DNA from: a phage
DNA length: 64,000 nt
Sequence record: PZ386970.1
Reading direction: 5' to 3' (one strand)
Under the pieces are notes generated by a model that saw nothing but the letters and a program-made list of their open reading frames with translations, searched no databases and was not told where the DNA came from. The position numbers and the translations under genes are program-made. Shown piece after piece: positions 5,195 through 11,963 of the stretch; position 1 is the first letter of the stretch; every line of letters starts with the position of its first letter.

Positions 5195-7408
5195 TTATTT
5201 GGCTGCTTCCACAGCCTTCATGAATTTAACGATTTGAGCGACCTGTTCTTTGGAAAGAGTACCACGTCGTCCCATGTATTCTGACACAATATGATAATTG
5301 GTTTCGAATTCAATAACCATTTTATCATCATTATCGTAAGCATTATCTTTAAGCTTATCGAAAATTTTAGCACACAATTCTAACTTCCTGTTCAGGTCTG
5401 TATTAGTAGCACCTGCGAATCGATTCCATCCCCAACGATTATTTACTGTTGAGAGTTTTGCAAAGTCTTTACTGATTTCTTTGTTCTTAGAGCTAAAATA
5501 CTTACTAAGGAAATTAAGCTCTTCATTACGAGTAATATGATTCAAATAAGGCTGTGCTCTACGACTTGGTGATACATACTCATCATAATCTACTTTATCG
5601 ATTAGCATAATATAGTCATTAATTGATTTTTCAAACAAACATTCTACTTCACCGAGTTTACGAACTTTCTTAGCAATCTGTGGGCGGACTACAGTGAACT
5701 CTTTAATACCTGACAAATCGGCAATACGGGTCAAGAAATTAGAGTCATAGTTCAACCAACCTTTATCTGCGTCAAGACATTCAGCATTAGAACGATTACG
5801 AACTATAGCATAACCTTGGATTTCATCAGCTTCACTCGCTGGAATAAAGAGATCTTCTGATACCCAAACATCGTTTTCATTCTTAAAGAACCGATGAGCA
5901 CTTGGGGATTTAGGACGAGGCTCATTAGTCCGTTTCCTGACTTCAATCCATGGCTTAACGATTTGTAAAAGCTCTGAAGTCTTGTACATGTTAATGTTGT
6001 CGCCATCAAAGATAACTTTAAGGCGTTCCAGAAGTTTCATTGCATCTTCGTCTGTAGGGTCAACGAATAGTACGCTTTTACCAAAACCACGTGGAACTTT
6101 ACCTGATAATTTAACCTCGTCTTTAGACATTTCAATTGAATTAAGAGCTCGCATTAATGGAACGCGTCCCTTAACGTCGTCAATAACAATTTCAACGTTT
6201 TTAATGTTAATGCCGATCAGGCTGTTAATTGAAATGGTTGATGATGAGCTACCACTTTCACGAATACGACGAAGACGAGGAGATTCAACGATATCGTATA
6301 CGACGCCAAGATTACACCACTCAGGCCCCATTTTAAAACGTTTGTACAACTCAGAATAAGTTAGTTGTTCTTTAGAGTATTTCAGTGATTCAATATTAGA
6401 CCCAGCCTTTTCCATGTATTTACGAGCGGTATAGCCAAGAGAATCAATTTCGCGGAACACATGACGTGGGTATTTACAATCAATCCATTTCTTAGAATCT
6501 TCAGCGAACAATTTAGCATCGATTTCTGCAACGCGTTTATGGATATTTGCTACTGTACGTTTATCAAATGACAATGCTTCACGAGACGGGGCTACATCTA
6601 GTTCACCCATAGGGAATTTAATATAAGCTGTAGTGCATCGCGTCATCATCCATGTTTGTTCTTTAATAACACTTCCGATTGGATATACAATGCCGCCATA
6701 AACAGCCATGATATTACCACGTTCACCCCATGGAGCTTCCTTGGCTAAATAAACATCATCGAATTCCGGGAAGTATTTGATATCTTTAACACCACGAACT
6801 TCTGCAATATCGCCGAGAGGACGCATAACATAAGCAATTTCGGATGCAAACTTTTCAAAATCTTCCGGGTTAACCGGTACAACTACTTCTACACCCGTAC
6901 GGTCATCAGGACCCATCTTATCTACAAAGGTCGGCTTAATCTGTGGACCACTGTCATCTTGATAAATTACATAACCACGAACTTCACCATTATGATAAGA
7001 CGTAAGGTTAAACGTATCAGTATATGCTAATGGAGCTTTAGAGCCGAGTCCGAATCCACCAATGAAATCGTTACTCGATGTTTTAGTTGAAGCAAAATAT
7101 GAGTTATAAATTCCTGGCTCTTCGTCATTACCACGAATAGTGAAATCACTCATACCCGGACCAAAGTCTCGAACTACAAAACGTGGGTCTAAACGACCTG
7201 GAGCCTGAACAATAAACTTATCAGTGCAACCATTAAGAATTTGCCCATCAATACAGTTTGTGATTAATTCACGTACACAAGCCAATTCTTTGTTTGTATA
7301 AAGGTCATTAGACAAAATCTTATAAACTTTGCTATTGCCTTGAATAGTGAATGCTGTGCTCTTACCGCCTGAACCAATAATCGTTTCTTTAGCCGTTTCG
7401 ATAATCAT
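5195..7408 (-). CDS. rIIA: rIIA protein
   Basis: 737 aa, size and position between 39 and rIIB as in T4. Confidence 0.8.
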   Translation of the reverse strand: MIIETAKETIIGSGGKSTAFTIQGNSKVYKILSNDLYTNKELACVRELITNCIDGQILNGCTDKFIVQAPGRLDPRFVVRDFGPGMSDFTIRGNDEEPGIYNSYFASTKTSSNDFIGGFGLGSKAPLAYTDTFNLTSYHNGEVRGYVIYQDDSGPQIKPTFVDKMGPDDRTGVEVVVPVNPEDFEKFASEIAYVMRPLGDIAEVRGVKDIKYFPEFDDVYLAKEAPWGERGNIMAVYGGIVYPIGSVIKEQTWMMTRCTTAYIKFPMGELDVAPSREALSFDKRTVANIHKRVAEIDAKLFAEDSKKWIDCKYPRHVFREIDSLGYTARKYMEKAGSNIESLKYSKEQLTYSELYKRFKMGPEWCNLGVVYDIVESPRLRRIRESGSSSSTISINSLIGINIKNVEIVIDDVKGRVPLMRALNSIEMSKDEVKLSGKVPRGFGKSVLFVDPTDEDAMKLLERLKVIFDGDNINMYKTSELLQIVKPWIEVRKRTNEPRPKSPSAHRFFKNENDVWVSEDLFIPASEADEIQGYAIVRNRSNAECLDADKGWLNYDSNFLTRIADLSGIKEFTVVRPQIAKKVRKLGEVECLFEKSINDYIMLIDKVDYDEYVSPSRRAQPYLNHITRNEELNFLSKYFSSKNKEISKDFAKLSTVNNRWGWNRFAGATNTDLNRKLELCAKIFDKLKDNAYDNDDKMVIEFETNYHIVSEYMGRRGTLSKEQVAQIVKFMKAVEAAK

Positions 7409-7420
7409 GTTTTTCTCTCA

Positions 7421-7621
7421 TCACAAGTTACGTTTAAAAATTTCTGCTACTTCAAGAAGTTCTTCTTTAGTAGCTGTGTCGGTTTGTATTTTATATCGAA
7501 TTTCCTTAAAGCGTTCTTTAAAGGCTTCAGCTGATTCGATATCAAAAAATCTTTGGATAAGCCGGAATTCCCGGAGCACTGCTTTATCAAAAAGTTCCAA
7601 GTCCACGTTATATGTTCTCAT
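7421..7621 (-). CDS. hypothetical protein (66 aa), rIIA.1 position
   Basis: ATG ORF MRTYNVDL... with RBS; synteny. Confidence 0.5.
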   Translation of the reverse strand: MRTYNVDLELFDKAVLREFRLIQRFFDIESAEAFKERFKEIRYKIQTDTATKEELLEVAEIFKRNL

Positions 7622-7645
7622 AATATTCTCTTCAGTAGATTCCTA

Positions 7646-7698
7646 GGGCACTATTACTAAAGACCATATAATCTATCATCTTATGTGTAATAGTGCCT
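7646..7698 (-). other. perfect 11-bp inverted repeat (GGCACTATTAC / GTAATAGTGCC) with 29-nt AT-rich loop
   Basis: seen directly in sequence, between the glycosyltransferase stop and the next start codon. Confidence 0.6.
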
Positions 7699-7713
7699 CA
7701 GGCGATTCAGGAT

Positions 7714-8814
7714 TTACGCTGTGAAGATTTTATCCCACATCGCAACAACTGCATCTCGATTATACTTCTTCCATACTGCTTCAGCACGTTTAACTCGAGC
7801 TTCGTATGTGTCAGTGAATTCTAATACAGCTTTTGTGTAAAGCGCAACTACTTCTTTCTTAGGAGTAGAAGAATCAATTTCTACACGCACAGTATCTGGG
7901 TCATATTCGAATGTCGCATGAGGATAATCCTTAAAAACTAACTGGATTACAGGGACACCTTTAGAGATGGCTTCAATAGAACTATTCTCTACCGTACCTG
8001 TGTCAGGACACGTATTAATAAGTGCTTTAGCTGTTTTAAGACGTTCCATAATTTCACTGTGTGGAGCATCAATAATAACAGGATATTTAGCTGGTGGTGC
8101 CCATTTACTAGGACAGTATCCTGCACCATTTTCGCCTAGTGCTTTAATCGCTTCAAGAGCAACATCAGTACGACGCATTTTAGTGTCATAACGTTGTGCA
8201 CTAATAATCAGATCAGTCGCCGGAAGAACTTCAGGTTTCTCATTCAAACAAATAACCGGATAATCTTCGGCTTCAAACAACGGATTTGCTCGCCAATAAT
8301 CATAATCAATTTTGTCAGTCAGTCCCGAAGTCATATAACAATATTTACGTTCAAATTCACGGAAGGCTTTAGTAGGAGCATAACTCTTACCACCATTCTT
8401 ATGAATTTGAATAGTCTGGTCCCAAATTTGAACAATGCCACGAGATACCGGCTCAAATGGTGTTGCCATAAAATTCTTATGAACTTTAGAGAGACCTGCG
8501 TCTTTAATTGCCTGAACGGTTAGTTTGGTCGGTTCCATTGTAACAACGAAATCGTACTCATTAATGCCGGCTAGTTCAACAATCTTACGAGCCATAGTAT
8601 AACTCATACCTAGACTGAATTTAGTCAGATGACCAACAGGATGATGATTAACCTTCCAATCACCAAATGTGTCATTATCAAAGCCGATATAATCAATATC
8701 AGCACCGATGGACACAAGATATTTCAACACATTTAAATGTACTGCTTCAAGACCACCTTGTACACGTTCTGGGTTAAATGGGACTGCGCGAGATGGGATA
8801 AACATAACTTTCAT
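7714..8814 (-). CDS. GT-B fold glycosyltransferase (GT4-like), candidate DNA sugar transferase
   Basis: 366 aa; N-terminus MKVMFIPSRAVPFNPERVQGGLEAV is the GT-B donor-scaffold signature; C-terminal E..SIEAISKGVPVI motif; lies between rIIA and 39. Confidence 0.7.
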   Translation of the reverse strand: MKVMFIPSRAVPFNPERVQGGLEAVHLNVLKYLVSIGADIDYIGFDNDTFGDWKVNHHPVGHLTKFSLGMSYTMARKIVELAGINEYDFVVTMEPTKLTVQAIKDAGLSKVHKNFMATPFEPVSRGIVQIWDQTIQIHKNGGKSYAPTKAFREFERKYCYMTSGLTDKIDYDYWRANPLFEAEDYPVICLNEKPEVLPATDLIISAQRYDTKMRRTDVALEAIKALGENGAGYCPSKWAPPAKYPVIIDAPHSEIMERLKTAKALINTCPDTGTVENSSIEAISKGVPVIQLVFKDYPHATFEYDPDTVRVEIDSSTPKKEVVALYTKAVLEFTDTYEARVKRAEAVWKKYNRDAVVAMWDKIFTA

Positions 8815-8821
8815 AATTAAG

Positions 8822-8857
8822 CCTTATTAAAATTAAAATGAAGCTCCCGAAGGAGCT
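8822..8857 (-). terminator. UUCG-tetraloop hairpin (AGCUCC-UUCG-GGAGCU) plus U-rich tail, overlapping the HNH gene stop
   Basis: stem-loop followed by UCAUUUUAAUUUU on minus strand. Confidence 0.45.
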
Positions 8858-9654
8858 TAGGACATCCAACACATTTTATAACCTTTGCAGGTTCTGTTAG
8901 GATTATTTAATGCTTTCAATATATTAGAAGACCCTATACCTAAATACTCCCTTAATTCATAAAGATAGTTAAAATCAATAGTTTCACCTGTTTTTACACT
9001 TGTGATTCTTATAGGCCTTCTTTCATATTTAGATTTATACAACTCTCTAGTCTTAGCTTTAGTTTCTTCTGACCTAGGAGTGTATGGTTTAAATCCTTTT
9101 GTTTTAAATGTTTCCATTCTTGATTTAGTTATTTTATCCTGGTGTTCTTTTGTTTTTACAGGTGCTTTTCGCCCATTCTCCCAAGATAACTTGTTGGCCT
9201 GTATTATTTTATCTATTGCTTCTTGCGTATGAGTTTTACCATAAAATGGATTTAATTCGCCTATACGTTGTGAAGCAATATGTGACATTAATTCTCTTGT
9301 TGCTTTAGTATGTTTTTTACCTTTAAATGGGTTGCCATTTTTAGCAATCCATTCTTTCATAAATCTAGAGTGCTCTTTAGAGAATTCTTGTTTAAGCCAA
9401 TCATAATCTCTAGAATTTCTAGCTCCCATGTAAAAAGCTCTAATAGCCATAAGCGTAGAACGGTTCTTATGAATTTTATAAAGCAATAAATGGGCGATAA
9501 AATGCTCTCTAGGGGTCATTTTAACTAGATTTGATTTAGCATTACTCCCGCCCATAGATTTAGGCAAAATATGGTGAGTTTCAGTATAATTAGGAATAGT
9601 GCTGCGGTTTTTAGCCGCAGCGATAAGTTTATCATAAATTTTACGATAATTCAT
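8857..9654 (-). CDS. HNH homing endonuclease with NUMOD-like repeats (free-standing, Mob-like)
   Basis: HHILPKSMGGSNAKSNLVKMTPREHFIAH HNH motif; repeated NPFYGKxHT motifs; ATG overlaps gene 39 stop (TAATG); track start is an upstream TTG. Confidence 0.75.
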   Translation of the reverse strand: MNYRKIYDKLIAAAKNRSTIPNYTETHHILPKSMGGSNAKSNLVKMTPREHFIAHLLLYKIHKNRSTLMAIRAFYMGARNSRDYDWLKQEFSKEHSRFMKEWIAKNGNPFKGKKHTKATRELMSHIASQRIGELNPFYGKTHTQEAIDKIIQANKLSWENGRKAPVKTKEHQDKITKSRMETFKTKGFKPYTPRSEETKAKTRELYKSKYERRPIRITSVKTGETIDFNYLYELREYLGIGSSNILKALNNPNRTCKGYKMCWMS

Positions 9655-11474
9655 TATCCTAGCATCCAATCTTTACGGAGTTCAGGGTCGTTACCCATGA
9701 GCATTTCAAATAGTTCTTTCCAATTTTCAGGAAGTTTAACTACGTCGTACACAGGGTTTTGAATCATTTCTTTATATTCATCCCGCTGAAGTGAGCCCAA
9801 TCCCTTGATGTATCGAATACTATGCTTAGGCAGTGTATCTTTAGCTTCTTCATACTCAGCTACAGTATAAAACCATTTTTGAGATTTGCCAATTTGTGCA
9901 ATAATTACAGGTGTTTTAACAAAGCGAATACGTCCTTGTTCAAACAATTCAGGCCAATTACTAAAGAAAGCAAGCAAAGCCGGATAGATACTTCCAAGAC
10001 CGTCATGATCGGCATCGGTCATAATTGCAATATTACGATAGTTCGTATTCTCTGCCTTTTCACCAAGAATAAGACCTGTGATAGCACAGATATCAAAGAG
10101 CTCTTTGTTCTTCATCATATCAGCATATGACATACCCCAGCTATTCATCACCTTACCACGTAACGGGAATCCACCATGTAGTTCACGGTCACGAACATCA
10201 ATGAGATAACCAATTGCCGAATCACCTTCTGTTAAGAACAATGTCGTATCTGCATCTTTACCACATTGGTTAGCTTTAATATGCTTATGAACCTTAGCTT
10301 TAGTTGCCTTTTTAGCTGCTTTAGTTTCTGCAGCCTTTTCTGCTGCCAATTTACGAGCTAATGCTGCTTCAACAATAGGCATAATCAAGGCTTCGTTTTT
10401 AAGAAGCGCCTGAGCAATTTTCTTAGCATCTAATTGGATATGATTACGAATATCACCATACGTTGACGTTAAACGTTCTTTAGTCTGAGAATCAAAACGC
10501 ATGTTGCTCATGTCTCTAATAAACATCAACATTGTGAGACATTCTTTAACACGAGCTTTAGTGACTTCAATACCCTTATATTTCTTTTTAATACCCGGCA
10601 AAAGATGTTCGCAGATATCATCCATTACACATTCAACATGATGACCGCCATTTTTAGTATGGATGTTATTAACATAAGTTAAATGACGGAAGCCATCTGG
10701 TGATGTTGTGAATGCTATAGAGACTTTATCATTTTCTTGAATGATGTTATCTTCACCAAATTGTTTAGCAAATCGTTTAAAATTACCATCAACCTTTTTA
10801 CCATTAAATGTGAACTTGATATCAGGATAAACGACTGCCAATGTTTGAAGTCGGTCTAAAGTAATATCTAAATAAATTTGAGATAAATTATGCTCTTCAA
10901 ATGAAGAGAAATCAGGAGTGAAGATTACTTTAGTGCCTTTACCTTTAGATTTCTTAGAAGACCATGATTTGTTTTCCATTCCATTTGAACAGTTAACAGT
11001 GATTTCATTTTCACCATCTGACGTGATGCCTGTAAACAACGTAGAGAAGATATTAGTTAAACTACTCCCGACGCCGTTCATACCACCAGTCTTGCGTTCA
11101 GAATCATCACCAAAGTTACCACCAGCTTTTGGAATAGTCCAGGCTGCTACAGGCCCAGGAATTTGTTCACCTGTTTGGTCGGTAACTAAACCTTGAGGAA
11201 TACCACGTCCGTTATCTTCAACCGAAACTTGATTATTTTTAATTTGCACATCAATTTTATTTGCAAACTTAAATGATGTACGAATAGCTTCATCAACTGA
11301 GTTGTCAATAATCTCATCGATTAATTTAACCAGGCCAGGAACATATTCAACTTGTTGATATTTACCAAACAAAAAACGCTCATGTGCTTCTTTGGCCGAA
11401 GAACCAATATACATACCACTACGTTTCTTAATATGTTCTACATCTGACAATACCTTAATTTCATTTTTAATCAT
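9654..11474 (-). CDS. 39: DNA topoisomerase II large subunit (GyrB-like ATPase + Toprim), unsplit gp39
   Basis: 606 aa; MIKNEIKVLSDVEHIKKRSGMYIGSS N-terminus; Toprim LFLTEGDSA...DADHDG at C-terminus in the same ORF. Confidence 0.9.
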   Translation of the reverse strand: MIKNEIKVLSDVEHIKKRSGMYIGSSAKEAHERFLFGKYQQVEYVPGLVKLIDEIIDNSVDEAIRTSFKFANKIDVQIKNNQVSVEDNGRGIPQGLVTDQTGEQIPGPVAAWTIPKAGGNFGDDSERKTGGMNGVGSSLTNIFSTLFTGITSDGENEITVNCSNGMENKSWSSKKSKGKGTKVIFTPDFSSFEEHNLSQIYLDITLDRLQTLAVVYPDIKFTFNGKKVDGNFKRFAKQFGEDNIIQENDKVSIAFTTSPDGFRHLTYVNNIHTKNGGHHVECVMDDICEHLLPGIKKKYKGIEVTKARVKECLTMLMFIRDMSNMRFDSQTKERLTSTYGDIRNHIQLDAKKIAQALLKNEALIMPIVEAALARKLAAEKAAETKAAKKATKAKVHKHIKANQCGKDADTTLFLTEGDSAIGYLIDVRDRELHGGFPLRGKVMNSWGMSYADMMKNKELFDICAITGLILGEKAENTNYRNIAIMTDADHDGLGSIYPALLAFFSNWPELFEQGRIRFVKTPVIIAQIGKSQKWFYTVAEYEEAKDTLPKHSIRYIKGLGSLQRDEYKEMIQNPVYDVVKLPENWKELFEMLMGNDPELRKDWMLG

Positions 11475-11496
11475 GTTGTCTCCTCGTTATGAAGGT

Positions 11497-11523
11497 ATTC
11501 TATCATCCGAAATCTAAAGCAAA
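11497..11523 (-). promoter_or_regulatory. MotA-type middle promoter upstream of gene 39 (TTGCTTTA box, 12 nt, TAGAAT)
   Basis: minus strand tttTTGCTTTAgatttcggatgaTAGAAT; MotA box consensus (a/t)(a/t)TGCTT(t/c)A. Confidence 0.45.
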
Positions 11524-11538
11524 AAGGGCCGAAGCCCT
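11519..11538 (-). terminator. UUCG-tetraloop hairpin (AGGGC-UUCG-GCCCU) plus U5
   Basis: stem-loop followed by UUUUUG directly after the stop of the upstream gene. Confidence 0.5.
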
Positions 11539-11963
11539 TATTTAAATTTAATTTTCTGAAGTGCATCAATTGCAGCCAAACGCCCTTGTTCACTTTTAAC
11601 TGTAATGACCACATCGCCGGATACGATCACCGAACCATCAACAAATTCTATAGAGCCTTTTTTGAAATCGACAGCTGTATCTGGTTCCGGAACTTCTTCA
11701 AAGAATTTAAATTCTGCACCATAAAGCAGAATATCACCTTGCATACTATGAATAGTTCGGCCATAATCGCCTACGGCTTCTACAGCAATAACCGAAACGC
11801 CGTAACCAATCATCTCTTCCACAATAAAATCTTTGGACAATAAAGTAGTATGCAGATTAGTATTAAGACGTTTACCAGTTGTATTAAGAATTCTCAAGAA
11901 ATTATCTTCTTGACCTTTGATAATACGATATTTCTTACCAACTTCAAAACCTTTAAAAGCCAT
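11538..11963 (-). CDS. hypothetical protein (141 aa)
   Basis: ATG ORF MAFKGFEV...; no family recognised. Confidence 0.5.
   Translation of the reverse strand: MAFKGFEVGKKYRIIKGQEDNFLRILNTTGKRLNTNLHTTLLSKDFIVEEMIGYGVSVIAVEAVGDYGRTIHSMQGDILLYGAEFKFFEEVPEPDTAVDFKKGSIEFVDGSVIVSGDVVITVKSEQGRLAAIDALQKIKFK

Follow-up and report, generated by a model that had tools for sequence, protein, structure and literature searches.

The stretch of phage DNA analysed here (64,000 nucleotides (nt) of sequence record PZ386970.1, hereafter the window) very probably harbors, at the 3' end of its gene 39, a free-standing and promoter-less homing-endonuclease cassette of the Mob-type HNH class, 800 nt in length. The phage is a Mosigvirus, i.e., an RB69-like T-even phage, positions 7400-9700 being 96-98% identical to p000v, phi25-307, phiE142, phiC120 and others, and gene 39 is the host gene whose 3' end is occupied by the cassette. 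On the minus strand, gene 39 is followed by an open reading frame (ORF) of 265 amino acids (aa) for the nuclease, a hairpin, a glycosyltransferase (GT) gene of 366 aa, rIIA.1, rIIA and rIIB. We further suggest, at chances slightly below even, that the nuclease represents a second Mob lineage dedicated to the 3' end of the gene for the topoisomerase II large subunit (Topo2L), which supplies its own end of gp39 and which crossed between genera with differently hypermodified DNA (arabinosylated versus glucosylated cytosine derivatives) by homologous repair on one side and a microhomology join on the other.

The 265-aa ORF can be considered real, because it matches PHROG 655 ('homing endonuclease', E 3.5e-53) and the Pfam family NUMOD3 (PF07460, 36.5 bits over two stretches for a gathering cut-off of 20.4), and because the gene is present at ≥98% aa identity in 28 GenBank/RefSeq phage records, where it is mostly labelled 'homing endonuclease'. 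Support for the HNH assignment comes from motif conservation, profile searches and the modelled fold. Among 63 homologues, ETHHILPKSMGGSNAKSNLVKMTPREHFIAH is the best conserved segment, with N42, H51 and H55 invariant and H27 and H28 at least 90% conserved. The profile built from these homologues gives HNH-domain hits in a group II intron maturase (E 9.5e-5), in McrA (1.4e-4) and in Cas8-HNH (6e-4), and also hits the DNA-binding domain of I-TevI (E 7e-5). The AlphaFold2 model (mean pLDDT 89) presents a beta-beta-alpha core at residues 25-62, so that a beta-hairpin and an alpha-helix are predicted around the HNH motif; NUMOD3 linkers of helical structure come next, and a small beta/alpha domain forms the C-terminus. 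Searches with the single sequence were less informative: the PDB gave only a weak match to McrA (E 0.39), all NCBIfam matches were sub-threshold (TIGR01453, 35 bits vs a cut-off of 56), and a scan of IMG/VR with the protein yielded one close copy (phiE142) and distant N-terminal relatives.

Relatives of the protein occur in 1115 phage records, several of them under the names mobE or mobB. Residues 1-71 share 59% identity with the intact MobA of phage CJY920, and the N-terminus 53% with the mobA remnant of T4, whereas residues 72-265 are unrelated to MobA; a Mob-like N-terminal HNH domain is thus fused to a distinct C-terminal DNA-binding region. Gene 39 itself is a complete ORF of 606 aa, collinear with nuclease-free alleles, and an Rfam scan of positions 7400-11600 at E ≤ 1 detected no family, group I introns included. 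The protein is therefore best described, on sequence grounds, as a free-standing Mob-type HNH endonuclease equipped with I-TevI-like DNA-binding modules. A preliminary description of this locus had already proposed a free-standing, mobile HNH/NUMOD endonuclease gene, a view that is supported by the protein matches, by the patchy distribution of the gene and by its near-identity across diverged flanks.

Alignment of occupied and empty alleles places the insertion after nt 1809 of the 1821 nt of gene 39, with boundaries that are ambiguous within a 6-nt direct repeat, TGGATG. Nuclease-free gene 39 of the RB69 type ends in ...CTTCGTAAAGAATGGATG/TCCTAA (the slash marks the junction) and is followed by the hairpin, while the occupied junction in the window reads ...CTCCGTAAAGATTGGATG/CTAGGATAATGAAT...(nuclease)...TGTGTTGGATG/TCCTAA. 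The segment 8857-8868 is identical to the gene 39 end of RB69, Shf125875 and mobillu. The cassette provides gp39 with new last codons (Leu-Gly-stop, so that ..DWMLG replaces ..EWMS), and the displaced TGG ATG TCC TAA now forms the last codons and the stop of the nuclease ORF. As the preliminary description had noticed, the nuclease ORF begins at the gene 39 stop codon: its ATG and the TAA of gene 39 share one base (TAATG, in fact TAATGA, in the context TGG ATG CTA GGA TAA TGA AT). It equally ends in a hairpin ahead of the GT gene, its TAA (8859-8857) lying inside the 5' arm of AAGCTCC-TTCG-GGAGCTT (8858-8841), which is directly followed by CATTTTAATT, and the GT start codon is found 27 nt beyond the hairpin. 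The start at 8822 given earlier for the element counts in the hairpin and the spacer, the ORF proper ending at 8857. This hairpin, the sole terminator-like site in a scan of positions 8600-10000, is the pre-existing terminator of gene 39, now located 3' of the nuclease gene.

The comparison with 167 related Mosigvirus records that matched the region revealed a series of alleles. The nuclease gene was counted in 20 of them, and 129 records present a naive gene 39 end; the occupied allele is found in addition in eight records of Tequatrovirus. Six further records (OLB35, TH12, TH58, CCU7, LF82-4, and phiEC1) exhibit a 19-nt scar, TGGATG/CTTGGTTAAT.TGATAGATG/TCCTAA, which is collinear with both cassette ends, retains the cassette-derived Leu-Gly-stop and would be a deletion remnant of the cassette. 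That the scar allele, as in OLB35, could be the pre-insertion site was considered less likely, gp39 ending there with the Leu-Gly-stop supplied by the cassette vs ...EWMS in RB69-type phages and Tequatrovirus. Finally, NHEP36 shows a clean junction, GATTGGATG/TCCTAA, on a cassette-linked flank, and this junction appears to be the product expected from recombination across the TGGATG repeat.

The flank of the cassette varies together with it. In a table of variable sites from 11 Mosigvirus genomes, a haplotype called A (variable sites nt 1677-1806 of gene 39) was found with all cassette and scar alleles and with no RB69-type allele, and NHEP36 also carries it over the terminal ~80 nt of gene 39 that were read. 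We infer that haplotype A is a co-conversion tract, and it probably indicates the location of the homing site. A longer tract is seen in AV115, whose identity to the window is ~83% in nt 1-1100 of gene 39 and rises to 98-100% from there on, over the remainder of the gene, the cassette and about the initial 230-270 nt of the GT gene. Sporadic presence (20/167 records) is thus accompanied by co-conversion of the flanks, with a linked haplotype and tracts of varied length.

The cassette is not restricted to Mosigvirus. The eight Tequatrovirus records that carry it correspond to fPS-90, F1, FN, BYEP01, FL12 and CJY920, some of which are present as both GenBank and RefSeq copies. Compared with the nuclease-free Tequatrovirus Kelasse, fPS-90 is 94-100% identical over nt 1-1375 of gene 39 and 62-88% identical over the last 420 nt; compared with the window, it is 56-88% identical at first and 96-100% identical from nt ~1420 through the nuclease gene and the hairpin, the identity switching between nt 1402 and 1407. 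In the five Tequatrovirus carriers examined (5/5), the sequence 3' of the hairpin is ATGAAAGTTATGTTTATCCCATCTCGTGCAGTCCCATTTAATCCTGACC, which corresponds to the first 52 nt of the Mosigvirus GT gene in the version found in SQ17, AV111 and AV115. This fragment runs, across an imperfect microhomology (AAT[C/G]CTGACC), into a duplicate of the native Tequatrovirus gene 39 end (TGACCTTCGTAAAGAATGGATGAGCCAGTAG), after which the normal upstream sequence of rIIA.1 resumes, and the junction is identical in all five phages. Because of the GT fragment, the shared junction and the duplicated native end, the direction of transfer must have been from Mosigvirus to Tequatrovirus, in a single founding event. 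The sequences show that in this event the gene 39 side was repaired by homology and the opposite side was joined illegitimately. Afterwards the cassette spread among Tequatrovirus backgrounds with shorter Mosigvirus tracts, the switch being located at nt ~1446-1461 in FL12 and at nt ~1650 in CJY920, whose haplotype A tract begins at about nt 1652. The nuclease-free SP21535 has the same boundary at nt 1402-1407 and a patchwork of Mosigvirus and Tequatrovirus segments; it is evidently, from this pattern, a descendant that lost the cassette by recombination. CJY920 presents a further peculiarity, as it harbors a full T4-type MobA element inside its topoisomerase gene (an intact MobA of 270 aa with a GTG start, plus the bypass segment) in addition to the present cassette at the end of the gene, so that a single host gene houses two related selfish elements. 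The MobA element is located at about 1560-2700 of the CJY920 sequence (L008), a place equivalent to window ~10050.

One may ask whether this gene continues to encode a functional homing endonuclease. According to an alternative that we consider unlikely, it would be an inactive relic or a domesticated factor, with a role in phage exclusion or related to the topoisomerase, spread by ordinary recombination and hitch-hiking. Indeed, the mobA of T4 itself has decayed, T-even genomes are highly mosaic in any case, nuclease activity is a prediction, and two of the 12 copies examined are frameshifted. However, the catalytic residues are intact and the 17 variable sites in 798 nt among the 10 copies with an intact ORF are biased to synonymous third-codon positions (11 vs six non-synonymous, P = 0.008). 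In addition, the protein remains ≥98% identical between phages that diverge by up to 25-30% in the flanking genes, and this near-identity across two genera goes with a one-sided illegitimate junction that is typical of break repair. Related nuclease genes moreover recur at the same site in distant phages, since metagenomic homologues (P0002 and P0003, 45% identity) lie directly behind a Topo2L of 606/607 aa, with rIIA.1 or RNA ligase 2 downstream. The frameshifted copies, AV118 and ECO111 5-P, have one-base changes (+1 and -1) in the same A-run (GGTAAAAAACAT, ORF nt ~331-337) and could be true pseudogenes, cases of slippage-prone expression or homopolymer sequencing errors.

As for the site recognized by the enzyme, several observations converge on the very end of gene 39. 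FL12 and CJY920 keep Tequatrovirus sequence upstream of their respective switches and yet carry the cassette, Mosigvirus carriers and naive phages do not differ at nt 1400-1660 of gene 39, and the sole sequence that is common to all carriers and missing from naive alleles consists of the terminal ~170 nt of gene 39 together with the insertion. Because carriers must be immune and differ from naive phages only there, the homing site would lie in these last ~170 nt. Its most likely position is around CTTCGTAAAGA(A/G)TGGATG, a placement to which we give roughly even chances. This sequence is shared by the three naive sequences, and the three occupied alleles all exhibit a synonymous change in the Leu codon of CTTCGTAAAGA (CTC, TTA, and TTG). 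Displaced native gene 39 ends also follow the nuclease ORF in three independent contexts, with 12 nt in Mosigvirus, about 27 nt in a metagenomic T4-like contig (L020) encoding a homologue of 45% identity, and about 31 nt in Tequatrovirus.

An enzyme cutting far off, close to the MobA site or at this site itself, within the part of gene 39 that encodes Toprim (nt ~1400-1470), with ~400 nt co-converted as for SegG/SegF, seems improbable to us. It would account for the tract start at nt 1402-1407 shared by fPS-90, F1, BYEP01 and the nuclease-free SP21535, which coincides with the window of gene 39 nt 1399-1419 where MobA elements insert (Manning and Atkins preprint, bioRxiv 10.1101/2022.08.31.505936), and for the 59% identity of the N-terminal domain to MobA. 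Nevertheless, Mosigvirus carriers and naive phages being alike in that region, carriers would not be immune; FL12 combines Tequatrovirus sequence to about nt 1446-1461 with the cassette; the DNA-binding two-thirds of the protein are unrelated to MobA; and the five Tequatrovirus carriers stem from one event, so that their boundary counts as a single observation. The 5' edge of the tract (window ~10068-10073) adjoins, on its left, sequence of poor conservation between the two genera, and its overlap with the MobA window is either a coincidence or the sign of a shared fragile or cleavage site. A tract starting at nt ~1400 had also been considered for AV115 and was dropped, since the sliding-identity profile puts its start at nt ~1100, and there is therefore no recurrent boundary at ~1400.

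With a site in the last ~170 nt, the following scenario may be proposed. The cassette would be transcribed together with gene 39 and the nuclease translated at a low level via coupling. During mixed infection, the enzyme would nick or cut the nuclease-free gene 39 in this terminal part, with a candidate site around CTTCGTAAAGAATGGATG, and recombination-dependent phage repair would copy the donor cassette and, to a variable extent, the adjoining 3' end of gene 39. The synonymous and terminal changes of the co-converted end, as well as the insertion, would then protect the occupied allele. By analogy with MobA, MobE and I-HmuI (PMC2988022), the enzyme may introduce nicks instead of double-strand cuts.

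Several points weigh against an active cassette homing to the end of gene 39. The nuclease activity of the 265-aa protein is predicted, and no Pfam HNH family matched this query at E ≤ 0.01, PF01844 being present in several homologues. The proposed target site is derived from few alleles and from a linkage that could be due simply to physical proximity, and the tract of the founding Tequatrovirus event starts in the MobA insertion window, so that a distant site is possible for that event. Similarly, the scar-type allele differs from the ends of the present cassette at four of 19 positions, and both frameshifts, falling in one A-run, could be sequencing errors.

Whether the cassette has any special relationship with the adjacent GT gene is a separate question. 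Its homologue ORF003c of RB69 was proposed as the arabinosyltransferase of that phage (PMC6024577) and more recently, as gp3, was listed as a putative second (beta) arabinosyltransferase acting on 5-hydroxycytosine DNA (PMC13326640); the literature attributes to this gene a GT-B fold and the role of a second arabinosyltransferase. No match to it was obtained in Pfam or NCBIfam, and PHROG 8302, to which it belongs, bears the label 'unknown function'. At ≥95% aa identity, the GT was found in 156 records, all of the ~160 Mosigvirus records having it; Acinetobacter phages encode it at about 43% identity and at other genome positions, and the search found none in Tequatrovirus. It lies directly behind gene 39 in the nuclease-free records among the 167, and 129 of the GT-matching records have a naive, never-occupied gene 39 end. 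Conversely, all 28 copies of the nuclease gene adjoin the topoisomerase gene, and in the eight Tequatrovirus records the nuclease stands behind gene 39 and is followed by the hairpin and rIIA.1 without any GT. The constant partner of the nuclease gene is hence the 3' end of gene 39 and not the GT. The GT gene of AV115 is in itself a mosaic, with nt about 230-600 only 72-88% identical to the window and both ends near-identical.

The preliminary description had suggested that the nuclease delivered the transferase gene or mobilises it. When the interval between gene 39 and rIIA was compared among relatives, the presence of the two genes did not co-vary in either direction, the GT occurring without the nuclease in the 129 naive records and the nuclease without the GT in the eight Tequatrovirus records, and this suggestion was abandoned. 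Of the accompanying idea that modification genes are exchanged through homing, there remains a short co-conversion into the GT gene (52 nt in Tequatrovirus, 230-270 nt in AV115), no functional GT having been moved. That the cassette brought the GT into the locus or still mobilises it is accordingly the most improbable of the explanations considered, for although the GT is missing from this locus in Tequatrovirus, sits directly beside the cassette and is entered by co-conversion (the 52-nt fragment, about the first 230-270 nt in AV115), it is found in 156 records regardless of the cassette, 129 of them next to a naive gene 39 end, the nuclease lives without it in the eight Tequatrovirus records and in two metagenomic lineages, the sole documented intergeneric transfer carried no functional GT, and delivery is already refuted by the lack of co-variation. 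The GT is a resident gene of Mosigvirus and a bystander, touched solely by spill-over co-conversion.

As a gene, the present nuclease ORF is ordinary: T4-like phages commonly carry HNH homing endonucleases of the free-standing sort. It was mentioned in passing for phiC120, without analysis (PMC8022965), and was not discussed in the fPS-90 paper. In the library searched, we found no paper on its association with gene 39, on the allele series or on the intergeneric transfer. What the comparison contributes is an unusually complete natural record of a life cycle at one site (naive, occupied, frameshifted, scarred, and cleanly excised) and a transfer from Mosigvirus to Tequatrovirus whose junction is a datable 'fingerprint'. 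Gene exchange between RB69 and T4-type phages had been described as impossible, which was attributed to the arabinosylated DNA of RB69 (PMC6024577). If a second Mob lineage did cross between the genera as suggested above, homing can breach the recombinational isolation in which RB69-type phages are supposed to live, and fragments of modification genes can be taken across with it. The locus further offers a concrete experimental system at low cost, for which a target and immunity changes are predicted and both carrier and naive phages are available, and that could be used to study the action of HNH homing enzymes on hypermodified DNA and the reasons why the topoisomerase gene is chosen repeatedly by such elements.

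The coordinates of the features discussed are collected in Table 1.

Table 1. Features of the gene 39 3' region and of the inserted cassette (positions in the window).
Feature	Position	Strand	Basis
Gene 39, unsplit '60plus39' topoisomerase II large subunit, 606 aa	9654-11474	minus	Pfam HATPase_c, DNA_gyraseB, TOPRIM_C; annotations
Gene 39 nt 1407-1821, 96-100% identical to nuclease-carrying Tequatrovirus (rest about 56-88%)	9654-10068	minus	
Haplotype A, last ~145 nt of gene 39 (nt 1677-1821)	9654-9798	minus	Variable-site table, 11 Mosigvirus genomes
Upstream TGGATG repeat copy (W-M codons of gp39)	9663-9668	minus	Junction alignments
Inserted cassette, 800 nt relative to naive gene 39 alleles	8863-9662	minus	Alignment of occupied and empty alleles
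Predicted RNA stem-loop pairing GGAUAAUG, start region of nuclease ORF	9622-9659	minus	
Homing-endonuclease ORF, 265 aa (ATG 9654-9652, TAA 8859-8857)	8857-9654	minus	ORF list, sequence, PHROG 655
HNH (beta-beta-alpha-metal) core, about residues 20-60, ETHHILPKSMGGSNAKSNLVKMTPREHFIAH	9475-9597	minus	
Two NUMOD3 motifs, about residues 107-151, I-TevI-type DNA-binding linker	9202-9336	minus	
Small beta/alpha domain at the C-terminus (about residues 213-265), presumed to bind DNA sequence-specifically	8860-9018	minus	
Downstream TGGATG + TCCTAA, former 12-nt terminus of gene 39 (W M S stop), now displaced	8857-8868	minus	
Intrinsic-terminator-like hairpin and T-rich tail	8831-8858	minus	Unchanged in nuclease-free relatives; 'terminator' annotation in several records
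GT gene, 366 aa, homologue of RB69 ORF003c/gp3	7714-8814	minus	Annotation note 'similar to RB69 Orf003c'

Regarding expression signals, the exact late-promoter motif TATAAATA was not found within the region, and sigma-70-like sites gave weak matches only, not above the shuffled expectation, T4 middle promoters not being scanned for. The RNA of positions 9600-9720 is predicted to fold at -30.2 kcal/mol (z -3.3), none of 200 shuffled sequences being as stable, and the stem-loop at the nuclease start could possibly damp translation. A perfect, GC-rich hairpin of 7 bp, GCUGCGG-CUAAAAA-CCGCAGC, is also present at window positions 9601-9621 on the minus strand, over codons 11-18 of the nuclease ORF, with no U-run after it. 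In T4, mobE and segF have internal terminators near their 5' ends, and a UAAUGA overlap, for which translational coupling is suspected, was described between nrdA and mobE, along with promoter-less mob cassettes (PMC2988022).

Among known systems, the window protein resembles the T4 Mob endonucleases and I-HmuI. With MobE it shares a Mob-type N-terminal HNH domain, and its relatives are annotated mobE; both are encoded by a promoter-less cassette between two genes, with an AUG overlapping the upstream stop as UAAUGA (nrdA/mobE), and the hairpin early in the coding region recalls the internal terminator of mobE. However, the locus is nrdA-nrdB for mobE and gene 39 here, the DNA-binding region differs, and the present system is known from sequence alone. 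Similarly, the MobA element has the same host gene, Topo2L, 59% identity in the first 71 residues, a start that overlaps the upstream topoisomerase ORF, and replacement host coding sequence, here comparable to the CTE and homR of MobA. On the contrary, MobA elements insert at nt 1399-1419 and split Topo2L into 39 and 60, whereas the present insertion lies at nt 1809/1821 and leaves gene 39 whole. CTE/NTE and the 50-nt bypass cassette were looked for in gene 39 of the window and not found, the extra segments of T4 and CJY920 being located at nt ~1418-1425 and ~1469. The possibility that the cassette is itself a MobA element was thus ruled out by its insertion site, the unsplit gene, the missing bypass and a homology to MobA limited to residues 1-71. 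I-HmuI, the intron-encoded HNH nicking enzyme of the Bacillus phage SPO1 (PDB 1u3e), is 17-19% identical to the protein, and no intron is present here. I-TevI differs by its GIY-YIG catalytic domain, that of the window protein being HNH.

The intergeneric junction also has a counterpart in the phage T4 td intron model of Parker, Belisle and Belfort (1999), in which double-strand breaks are reportedly repaired illegitimately with limited homology when an intron or endonuclease is acquired. The likeness resides in homology on one side (gene 39), a single junction at a microhomology (AAT[C/G]CTGACC) and a duplicated recipient end; the difference is that the event reported here is natural, took place between two genera and is read from sequence, whereas the td model comes from experiment.

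Two observations on the metagenomic relatives may be added. In contig L020, a 235-aa ORF matching Endonuclease_7 (PF02945, 1144-1851) is located immediately upstream of the topoisomerase gene and may be another mobile nuclease flanking that gene. In the second metagenomic lineage (L023, 3960-4000), a 35-nt spacer separates the topoisomerase stop from the nuclease and contains a hairpin (GGAGGATA-TTTC-TATCCTCC) and its own Shine-Dalgarno-like GGAGG, an expression arrangement that differs from the stop/start overlap of the window.

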